A DNA stretch of 64,000 nucleotides, taken from assembly GCF_988243305.1 (NCBI RefSeq), contig NZ_OZ547136.1, one strand, 5' to 3'. This document shows positions 48,651 to 52,408 of this stretch, piece by piece; the first letter of the stretch is position 1, and every line of letters starts with the position of its first letter. A program made the translations under genes and the position numbers. Under the pieces are notes generated by a model. It was not told the origin of the DNA, ran no database searches, and saw nothing but the letters and a program-made list of their open reading frames with translations.

Positions 48651-51600
48651 TTACTCAACAGGTTGCGGACGCGCAGGAGCGGCAGAGGCATGATGCGTTG
48701 CCGTATGACCACCTGCGGCACCTTTGCCTTCGAAAGCAAAAGTAGGGCGCTGCCAGTCACTGTGACGCGGTGCCTCCGGAACATATTCCGGTGCCGGAGC
48801 GCGTGTCATTGGCGCGGTAGCGTGGTTATGCTCAACGGTGACCTCAGGTTTAACCGCGGCTACCGTTTCAACTTCTGCTGCGACTTCAGCGACGACTGGC
48901 GCGGCAGGTTGAGCAACAACTTCAGGTTCAGCAACCACAACCTCAGCAGTTTCGGCAACTTCTTCAATATCAGCCGTCTCTTCCTGCGGTTCAACCACCG
49001 GTTCTGCGTGTTCTGCAACTTCCTGGGCTACGGCAACATCAGACTCGGTAATCACCTGCGGCTGTTCAGTTACCGCGGCGGCAATCACTTCAGGATGCGT
49101 AGTTTCAACCACTTCAGGTTGCGGTTCGGCAACCTGAACGGGGGCTTCTACAACTTCAGCCACTTCTTCAACAACCGGTGCGCTAACAACAGGTTCGACA
49201 GCGGCGGCGACAGGGACCTCAGTCACCATCGGCTGCACTTGTACTTCTTCCTGTTCGCGCTGCTCTTCGACCTGTACATCTTGCGGACGTACAATTGGAT
49301 AGCGGATCCAGACTTTGCCAGAGGCCAGTTCCGGAGATGCGCACGCTACGGTCAAAGGCATTGGCGATTGGGTTGGATAACGCTCGTCACGATAGCGACG
49401 ACGACGCTGACCACTCACGCGCAGGTGACGAGGCGAGCGGCGAGAACGACGCGGCATGCCACCGTTGTCACGGTTATCGGCATTGTTCTCTTCTTGCTGT
49501 TCTGGTGCAGCTTGCGCTACGACTGGCAGCGGGACTTTCACCAGTTCTGTGCGTGGAGCTGGCGCTTCCTGAACAATTGGTTCGGCAGCGACAGTTTCTT
49601 CAACCACCGGTGCGACTACCGCCTCTTCGGCTACGCTTTGCTCGTAACGCACTTTCTGATTGAGCTGACGCTGTTTACGACGCGGCTGAACCGGACGTAC
49701 ACGTTCTTCCTGTTCAGTTTCCTGAACAGATTGCTCTTCAACATTCAGCGCCTTCGCTTCTTGTTGCGCCTGACGTTTATCATCGTTACGGCGGCGGCTA
49801 CGTTCACGACGCGGCGCTTGCTGCTCGTCGGTGGTACGTGCTTTTTCCGTTACCTCAGCCTGCTGACGGCTCTCACGCGTCTCGGCAGTCTGCTGCTGTG
49901 CCTGGCGACGATTACGACGGTTTTCTTCGCGATTATCGCTGCCTTCAGTACGTTCACTACGGGTGTCGCGGCGCTCATTACGGTCACGGCGGTTGTTCTG
50001 ACGAGGCTTGCGACGATCCTGTTGACGTTCCGGTTTCGCTTCTGCTTTCGGTGCTGGTTGCTCGGCCGGTTTGGTTTCTTCACCACCGATGAACAGCGCT
50101 TTCAGTGCGCCGAAGAAGCGGCTCAACAACCCTGGTTGTGCAGGAGATGCTGGTGTTGCCGTTGCAGCTTTAGGTGCTGGGGCTACAACAGGCGCGGCAG
50201 GTTCAGCTGGGGTTGGAGCTGGCGGCACATCCGGCATGGCAAAGGTTGCCAGCGCAGGTTGTTCAGGACGCTTACGTTCAGCGAACTCTTCTTCAGACGG
50301 CAGCGCCATCGCTTCTTCATGCAGCTTCGGCAGCATGTAGCTTAAGGTTGGAGTTTCTTCCCCTTTACGCACGCGCAGCACATGGTAGTGCGGGGTTTCC
50401 ATCTGATCGTTTGGCACAATCACACAGCGCACGCCGTCCTGACGAGTTTCAATCGCATTCACTGCAGAACGTTTTTCATTCAGCAGGTAAGACGCGATTG
50501 GCACAGGAACAATGGCGTGAACTTCCTGAGTGTTCTCTTTCAGCGCTTCTTCTTCGATCAGACGCAGAATAGAGAGCGACAACGATTCGTTGTCACGCAC
50601 GGTACCGGTACCGGAGCAGCGCGGGCAGACGTGATGGCTGGATTCACCCAGTGATGGGCTCAGACGCTGACGGGACATTTCCAGCAGGCCAAAGCGAGAA
50701 ATATGGCTGATTTGAATACGCGCCCGGTCCTGACGCACCGCTTCACGCAGACGGTTTTCTACCGCACGCTGGTGGCGTACTGGCGTCATGTCGATGAAGT
50801 CGATAACAATCAGGCCGCCGAGGTCACGCAGGCGCAGCTGACGAGCAATCTCATCGGCAGCTTCGAGGTTGGTGTTAAACGCGGTTTCTTCGATATCGCC
50901 GCCGCGGGTCGCGCGTGCGGAGTTGATGTCGATGGCGGTTAACGCTTCGGTGCTGTCGATAACAATGGAACCACCGGATGGCAGACGAACTTCACGCTGG
51001 AAGGCGGACTCAATCTGTGACTCGATCTGGTAGTGGCTGAACAGCGGGATCTCGCCGGTGTACAGTTTGATTTTGCTGCTGAAATCCGGGCGACCTAATG
51101 CAGCGATATGCTGGCGTGCCAGTTCGAGCACTTTCGGGTTATCGATAAGGATTTCGCCGATGTCCTGACGTAAGTAATCGCGGAATGCGCGAACGATTAC
51201 GTTGCTCTCCTGATGAATCAGGAACGGAGCTGGGCGGCTTTCAGCGGCTTTTTTGATGGCTTCCCAGTGTTTCAGACGGAAGCTTAAATCCCATTGCAGC
51301 GCCTCAGCAGATTTGCCGACGCCAGCGGTGCGCACGATAAGCCCCATGCCTTCCGGCAGTTCAAGGCTCGCCAGTGCTTCTTTTAATTCGGTACGGTCGT
51401 CGCCTTCGATACGACGAGAAATGCCACCCGCGCGCGGGTTGTTCGGCATCAGAACCAGATAGCTACCCGCCAGACTGATAAAGGTGGTTAATGCCGCGCC
51501 TTTGTTGCCGCGCTCTTCTTTATCGATCTGAACAATGACTTCCTGACCTTCACGCAACACATCTTTAATGTTGGGACGACCATGAGCACTGTAGTTAGCA

Positions 51601-51836
51601 GGGAAATATTCGCGGGCAATTTCTTTTAGTGGGAGGAAACCGTGACGTTCAGCGCCGTAATCAACAAAAGCAGCTTCCAGACTCGGTTCAATGCGGGTGA
51701 TTTTACCTTTGTAGATGTTTGCCTTTTTCTGCTCGTGCCCTGGACTTTCGATATCCAGGTCATACAGACGCTGCCCATCTACAAGGGCAACGCGCAACTC
51801 TTCCTGCTGAGTTGCGTTGATTAACATTCTTTTCAT
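48651..51836 (-). CDS. rne: Ribonuclease E
   Basis: 1061 aa; [32 protein letters not shown]-terminus; Arg/Pro/Glu/Ala-rich low-complexity C-terminal half. Confidence 0.96.
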
Positions 51837-52197
51837 CGTAACTTACTCATTATTCTTACATTGACGACTAAGCTGCGGGCAAAGTAACGCCTTTCCGGGT
51901 GTGAACCGATGGCCTCGTGTCTAGTCGCGTCGCCAACCTCACGGTTATCGTCAGCTCAAAGAGGCGCAGAGTGTCGGTTGCCCGTTTTTCATGCGGAAAA
52001 ACAGCGCAATTATCAAAGAAACAGACTGGGTATTACTCTCCAGAAATATTTCCATCTACCGGTAAGGACTGCAACCCGCAGCCCGCTAACTGCCTGAAAG
52101 ATCAATACGTCTTACGCCATTGCTGCGTGGATGATCGGTCGGGCAAAATGGGTTATTCCGTAAAATTTCTTGTTTTAACAAGGATGGACACGGAAAC
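51837..52197 (-). promoter_or_regulatory. rne 5' untranslated leader (autoregulatory in K-12)
   Basis: Long non-coding region upstream of rne start, divergent from rluC; extent taken from K-12 knowledge and is approximate. Confidence 0.6.
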
Positions 52198-52408
52198 GGC
52201 CTCATTATTCCACTGCAAGCCTTGTTATAGCAAGATGACTTTTACCATTTATCACCCGCTTACTCACAGTTTTTTCACTTCTTGCTGGTGATTGGTTTAA
52301 TAACCATCAATAAAGTGATCACGTAGTGAAGTAATAAGGTGCAAAACTAAATATAAGCATAGAAAAATGAGTGGCGCGAATCCTGTTGGCTAATTAGAAT
52401 CGCCCACC

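Follow-up and report, generated by a model that had tools for sequence, protein, structure and literature searches.

The DNA between the divergent rne and rluC genes of E. coli is very probably the control region of rne, and yceQ, the open reading frame annotated within it, is very probably a chance antisense frame and not a gene. Our own analysis contributes the match to the rne5 RNA family, covariation in the leader, the geometry of the promoters and the failure of the coding tests, while feedback control by RNase E, binding of DnaA, the leaderless state of rluC mRNA and the lack of yceQ translation are taken from the literature. The region is already known as the rne leader and promoter, and yceQ is already recognised in the literature as an annotation artefact. 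It is nevertheless still carried as a protein in the K-12 reference and counted as 'essential' by the Keio and PEC lists, and the annotation has misled both lists of essential genes and designs for genome recoding. The comparative tests reported here provide independent, sequence-based support for dropping yceQ as a coding gene and relabelling the DNA as rne leader/promoter; they teach nothing new about the regulation of RNase E.

The arrangement that we propose is as follows. Transcription of rne from promoter P1, on the minus strand, would begin at 52197 and produce a structured 5' UTR of 361 nt, rne5, and binding of RNase E to a stem-loop of this UTR would speed the decay of rne mRNA and so exert feedback control. 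Upstream of P1 there would be a double box bound by DnaA, followed by further conserved DNA, and rluC would be transcribed from a promoter abutting its ATG to give a leaderless mRNA. The plus-strand yceQ frame would be open by chance, antisense to DNA held constant for reasons of RNA structure and promoter function. Such constancy of the rne leader/promoter would explain why the frame looks 'conserved' in Escherichia and Salmonella, and the reported essentiality of yceQ would result from damage to the rne promoter/leader.

The window, by which we mean the whole 64,000-nt stretch of DNA that was analysed, is from E. coli. Its 801-bp segment 51700-52500 is 100% identical to the DNA of several complete genomes/strains and shows at least 99% identity in 5412 of the 5425 matching genomes. 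On this segment, the RefSeq (PGAP) records listed for identical E. coli DNA contain only the two flanking genes:

48651-51836, minus strand: rne coding sequence (RNase E, 1061 aa), from the ORF list and the RefSeq annotation of identical E. coli DNA.
52409-53368, plus strand: rluC coding sequence (23S rRNA pseudouridine synthase, 319 aa), from the ORF list and RefSeq annotation.

The genes are divergent and the gap between their start codons, 51837-52408, measures 572 bp. A preliminary description of this DNA had given a gap of about 570 bp, which agrees with the measured length; of the limits that it placed on the gap (51837-52400) the left one is correct, while the right one falls 8 bp short of the rluC ATG. 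We collected 80 loci, one per Enterobacterales species, by means of the RNase E N-terminus, and found rne and rluC to be divergent neighbours in every one of the 80. The length of the gap is strikingly constant, being 546-579 bp in most of the 80 species although the most distant of them are only 53-65% identical, and the exceptions, with gaps of ∼690-720 bp, are due to insertion of a repeat (described below). As a separate observation, the small RNA SraB (RF00077) was seen downstream of rluC/yceF in Citrobacter loci (L008:148-315 and L023:1-153), as annotated in K-12.

The larger part of the gap is accounted for by the leader of rne, within which one hairpin stands out by its conservation:

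51837-52197, minus strand: rne 5' UTR, the 361-nt leader of the P1 transcript, from the Rfam match, covariation and the length given in the literature.
52090-52146, minus strand: most conserved hairpin of the leader, with the core ACGCAGCAAUGGCGUAAGACGU, from Rfam helices 3-6 and conservation.

A scan with the Rfam models (cmscan) returned a single match, to RF00040 (rne5), running from 52197 to 51861 on the minus strand. The match scored 260.1 bits (E 4.6e-82), the gathering score being 180, covered model positions 1-333 of 333 and ended 24 nt before the rne ATG (51836) on the same strand. Among 20 further related loci, 18 reached or exceeded the gathering threshold for rne5, and in 18 the match had the same position upstream of rne. 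The 5' UTR of rne has a published length of 361 nt (PMC10989929), which a transcription start at 52197 reproduces. When compared with rne5 as known from RF00040 (Jain & Belasco 1995; Diwa et al. 2000), the leader examined here has the same position, strand, length of 361 nt, conserved hairpins and long-range helix, and we found no difference, the present leader being the type example, that is, the E. coli sequence itself.

We used a set of 31 Enterobacterales leaders for the analysis of covariation. When the Rfam structure was counted on these leaders 90.6% of cells were paired, as against 33-43% when the partners were slid by 1-3 columns, and changes on both sides of a pair occurred at 26 pairs (117 cells) as against 11-19 pairs (22-42 cells) in the slid controls. 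None of 500 shuffles attained the observed values for pairing and covariation. RNAalifold, applied to the 31 leaders, independently found the main helices, namely the hairpin with the core ACGCAGCAAUGGCGUAAGACGU, a long-range helix between GCGGGCUGCGG and its partner CCCGCAGC, and the 3' hairpins, with compensatory changes at 13 pairs. The minimum-free-energy fold of the leader, at -103 kcal/mol, was not more stable than those of shuffled sequences (z = -0.66), so that the evidence for structure comes from covariation and the Rfam match and not from thermodynamics. The preliminary description had proposed RNA structure prediction as a check on the leader; the full-length rne5 match and the covariation across the 31 leaders bear the leader out.

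Pairing in Rfam helices 3-6 amounts to 89-100%, both partners having changed at column pairs 67:101 and 68:100, and positions 52107-52126 show 99% identity over 81 sequences. We regard the hairpin at 52090-52146 as hp2, the stem-loop that serves as RNase E sensor (Diwa et al. 2000). RNase E reportedly binds a stem-loop of this UTR and accelerates the decay of its own mRNA, so producing feedback (Jain & Belasco 1995; Diwa et al. 2000; Schuck et al. 2009). Literature on RNase E-dependent feedback on rne mRNA decay is also cited in PMC10989929.

Beyond the start of the leader, towards rluC, the gap contains the following features:

52204-52233, minus strand: rne P1 promoter, from the promoter scan and conservation, with its start at 52197.
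52249-52268, plus strand: double DnaA box TTATCACCC-gc-TTACTCACA, at -52 to -71 from the rne P1 start and matching the published site.
52347-52380, no strand assigned: conserved block AAATATAAGCATAGAAAAATGAGTGGCGCG, with conservation of 0.79-0.97 in sequences at least 70% identical to E. coli.
52395-52400, plus strand: -10-like hexamer TAGAAT, 8 nt before the rluC ATG (52409), contained in TATTTAGAATCGC.

P1 was the sole sigma-70-like site that the promoter scan found in the gap. It is composed of a -35 element TTGCTA (52233-52228), an 18-nt spacer and a TG-extended -10 element AATAAT (52209-52204), the latter ending 7 nt before 52197, to which position 1 of the Rfam model aligns. The -10 and -35 blocks, together with the adjacent block 52227-52246, are nearly invariant in the Enterobacterales. 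The double DnaA box was found by ChIP-seq to be bound by DnaA, and was entered as '(yceQ) rne' (PMC11317965); its conservation is 0.81-0.94 in sequences at least 70% identical to E. coli and drops to 0.54-0.64 when all 81 sequences are taken.

Next to the boxes, the profile of the 81 sequences shows a poorly conserved stretch at 52277-52346. Between this stretch and the rluC -10 lies the block 52347-52380, in which GTGGCGC is nearly invariant across the Enterobacterales. The block may represent upstream rne promoters, the -35/UP (upstream promoter) region of rluC or a protein-binding site. A 555-bp region upstream of rne is stated in PMC8361080 to carry promoters P1-P4. We also considered a sigma-54 reading of the conserved TGGCGC (52372-52377) and rejected it, there being no conserved TTGC at the required spacing.

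The TAGAAT hexamer before rluC fell below the two-hexamer rule of our promoter scan. The motif that contains it, TATTTAGAATCGC, is nearly invariant across the Enterobacterales, with its arrangement conserved, and we found no Shine-Dalgarno sequence before the rluC ATG. This position of the hexamer, with no Shine-Dalgarno sequence, is consistent with a leaderless rluC mRNA, and rluC has been placed among the 'known leaderless genes' (PMC8794815). With its mRNA leaderless, the promoter of rluC would be confined to the last ∼40 bp of the gap, and nearly the whole of the gap would serve rne. The rluC promoter would moreover be located downstream of yceQ and directed away from it, and therefore could not transcribe it.

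The frame that has been annotated as yceQ occurs in two versions:

51917-52291, plus strand: longest ORF of the frame, 124 codons with a GTG start, from the ORF list.
51971-52291, plus strand: yceQ as annotated in K-12 (b1085), 106 codons with a GTG start, here classed as a spurious ORF; mapped from NC_000913.3.

In K-12 MG1655 yceQ (b1085, 'DUF2655 domain-containing protein YceQ') occupies 1144502-1144822 and specifies 106 aa, which places it at 51971-52291 of the window. The preliminary description had equated the 124-aa ORF with K-12 yceQ. Frame and stop are indeed those of K-12 b1085, a gene annotated in Salmonella as well, but the annotated gene consists of only the last 106 codons, from an internal GTG, and the frame as first reported is 18 codons longer. 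Salmonella has a 1-nt indel at 51923, and the 18-codon extension is therefore not conserved. The same description had put the frame wholly within the control DNA of rne, and this holds: 51917-52197 is antisense to the rne 5' UTR, and 52198-52291 comprises P1 and the DnaA boxes.

Several features of the frame could be taken to indicate that yceQ is a real young protein, restricted to Escherichia and Salmonella, encoded antisense to the rne leader and perhaps condition-specific. The ORF is longer than those in 99% of shuffles, a 124-codon ORF being present in 1.0%, and one of at least 106 codons in 3.8%, of 5000 dinucleotide-preserving shuffles of the gap; an ORF of such length is unusual for one region and is expected several times genome-wide. 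An SD-like GAGG, read from the sequence, precedes the GTG at 51971 by 6 nt. From the same start, 82 codons are open in every Salmonella record examined, S. bongori included, and over this core S. enterica and S. bongori show 78% amino-acid identity with E. coli. Finally, long open frames, of 133-188 codons, exist in a few other genera (Kosakonia, Phytobacter and Edwardsiella) by way of paired +1/-1 indels. We weighed these features against a series of coding tests, among them a projection of the E. coli frame onto the alignment of 81 sequences.

The yceQ frame proved to be intact only in Escherichia, the other genera having 2-18 indels, almost all of them in non-multiples of 3, as well as premature stops. 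Homologous predicted proteins were found only in the Enterobacteriaceae, and their lengths are erratic, with 48-139 aa in E. coli/Shigella, 82 aa in Salmonella and 68-156 aa in the remainder. In 50 of the 80 species there is a stop at 52217, the position at which the Salmonella ORF closes after 82 codons, from which the 106-codon form looks like a derived and recent extension in Escherichia.

Heterozygosity at the three codon positions was 0.135/0.101/0.150 for yceQ, compared with 0.066/0.030/0.409 for rluC and 0.019/0.007/0.285 for rne; thus, in the same species as were used for the rluC and rne controls, the yceQ frame shows no excess of variation at third positions. The Nei-Gojobori pN/pS of yceQ was 1.06 in the comparison with Citrobacter sp. 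R56, and 0.60-0.67 in those with S. enterica and S. bongori. These values lie inside the range of out-of-frame controls (0.62-0.77 and 1.8-1.9), whereas the real genes gave 0.003-0.010 (rne) and 0.11-0.13 (rluC). The 'synonymous' divergence of yceQ was 0.012 from E. albertii, where the flanking genes have 0.33-0.41, and 0.15-0.17 from Salmonella, where they have 0.53-0.71. Since it is so far below that of the flanking genes, the constraint is on the nucleotides and not on a protein.

We also counted the sites at which any species had gained a stop, a count that is independent of indels, and obtained 43 in the yceQ frame compared with 40 and 43 in the other two frames. This three-frame count therefore detected no selection against in-frame stops in yceQ. 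It bears directly on the open frames of Kosakonia, Phytobacter and Edwardsiella, which had suggested that the ORF is maintained, a suggestion that we set aside as there is no excess protection from stops. The long frames of these genera, like the SD-like GAGG and the length of the ORF, fit an ancestral chance ORF kept in DNA that can hardly change, and all three are outweighed by this frame-neutral result.

As a reference for codon usage we took 208 segments of real genes, of 106 codons each, from the 64-kb sequence. The score of yceQ, -0.14 bits per codon, is lower than any of the 208 (the lowest of which is -0.02) and near the average for antisense frames (-0.10). With its codon usage below every real-gene segment and 8 Cys among 106 residues, the frame does have the odd composition that had been remarked on previously. 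When both versions of the ORF were scanned against Pfam-A and NCBIfam there was no match at E <= 1, and the label 'DUF2655' persists only in older record names. Nor did the promoter scan reveal a promoter-like site on the plus strand upstream of or inside the ORF. The doubt expressed in the preliminary description about a yceQ protein is thus supported: the frame failed every coding test that we ran, and the analysis of conservation and pN/pS found no selection on the frame.

Published experiments lead in the same direction, and Price 2016, Goodall 2018 and Rousset 2018 have already argued that yceQ is not a protein or not essential. Price et al. 2016 recorded 0 ribosome-profiling reads for YceQ in three conditions and viable transposon insertions in yceQ, their verdict being that it 'does not encode a protein'. 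According to TraDIS data (Price et al. 2016; Goodall et al. 2018), yceQ tolerates only those insertions whose orientation allows them to drive rne. Attempts to recode three yceQ serine codons synonymously in the genome did not succeed (PMC7614783), which a later paper put down to the neighbouring essential gene's 5' UTR. We infer that the three recoded codons of PMC7614783 are the TCG/TCA codons at 51974, 51989 and 52013, whose spacing is 15 and 24 nt compared with the reported 14 and 24, and two of which lie in rne5 helices. In this respect yceQ resembles other spurious 'essential' ORFs overlapping control regions of essential genes, such as yaaY at a different locus: both are hypothetical ORFs located within the 5' UTR of an essential neighbour, and in both cases synonymous recoding harms the regulation of the neighbour.

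Taken with pN/pS values like those of other frames, the lack of codon periodicity, equal stop gain, non-coding codon usage and a plus strand devoid of promoter-like sites, the zero ribosome-profiling count makes a young, Escherichia/Salmonella-restricted protein very improbable. The finding that transposon insertions are viable and yet recoding that preserves the protein is not tolerated tells against it as well. A narrower form of the idea, that the 82-codon core (51971-52216) is a newly born small protein, antisense to the RNase E leader and translated at a low level or under an untried condition, seems to us very improbable; if it were true, one stretch of DNA would specify a regulatory RNA and a protein at once.

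The plus strand across yceQ could alternatively act without being translated, through a non-coding antisense transcript that would pair with the rne leader and adjust the synthesis of RNase E in the manner of an excludon. Its complementarity to the leader is complete over 281 nt, and ExcludonFinder includes rne-yceQ among its divergent excludons. However, this call follows directly from the overlap of the rne 5' UTR with an annotated 'gene' on the opposite strand, and we take it to be a mere consequence of that ORF annotation. The plus strand has no promoter-like site, and the rluC promoter, downstream of yceQ, fires away from it. In the CRISPRi study of Rousset et al. 2018 a fitness defect was seen only with guides on the template strand of yceQ, which block rne transcription, and none with guides on the coding strand. 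We therefore give an antisense RNA very little credence, and retain a control region of rne crossed by a chance frame as the explanation of the gap.

Natural insertions were also encountered in the gap. In seven species, belonging to Pseudocitrobacter, Klebsiella, Citrobacter, Pluralibacter and Kluyvera (L004, L005, L009, L013, L021, L023 and L032), an imperfect palindrome of 108-128 nt is inserted in the rne leader at the same site, after the equivalent of 52055, in the unpaired linker between CCGGUAG and AUGGAA. Erwinia persicina (L046) has the palindrome at a different site, after the equivalent of 52160. The palindrome folds as a long hairpin of -24 to -57 kcal/mol, and the leaders that contain it keep a full-length rne5 match. 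It is a dispersed intergenic repeat, with a median of 5 and a maximum of 11 matching places per E. coli genome. The core of the repeat resembles the ERIC/IRU consensus; our literature search yielded no paper that connects ERIC with rne.

Two E. coli strains carry insertion sequences in the gap. In strain SLDY13 an IS1A has entered the conserved block upstream of rluC, at 52350-52358, with duplication of 9 bp. In the O121 strain 201805972 an ISEc11 is inserted at 52272-52274, in the last six codons of yceQ and ∼75 nt upstream of the rne P1 start. Both insertions spare P1, the DnaA boxes and the leader.
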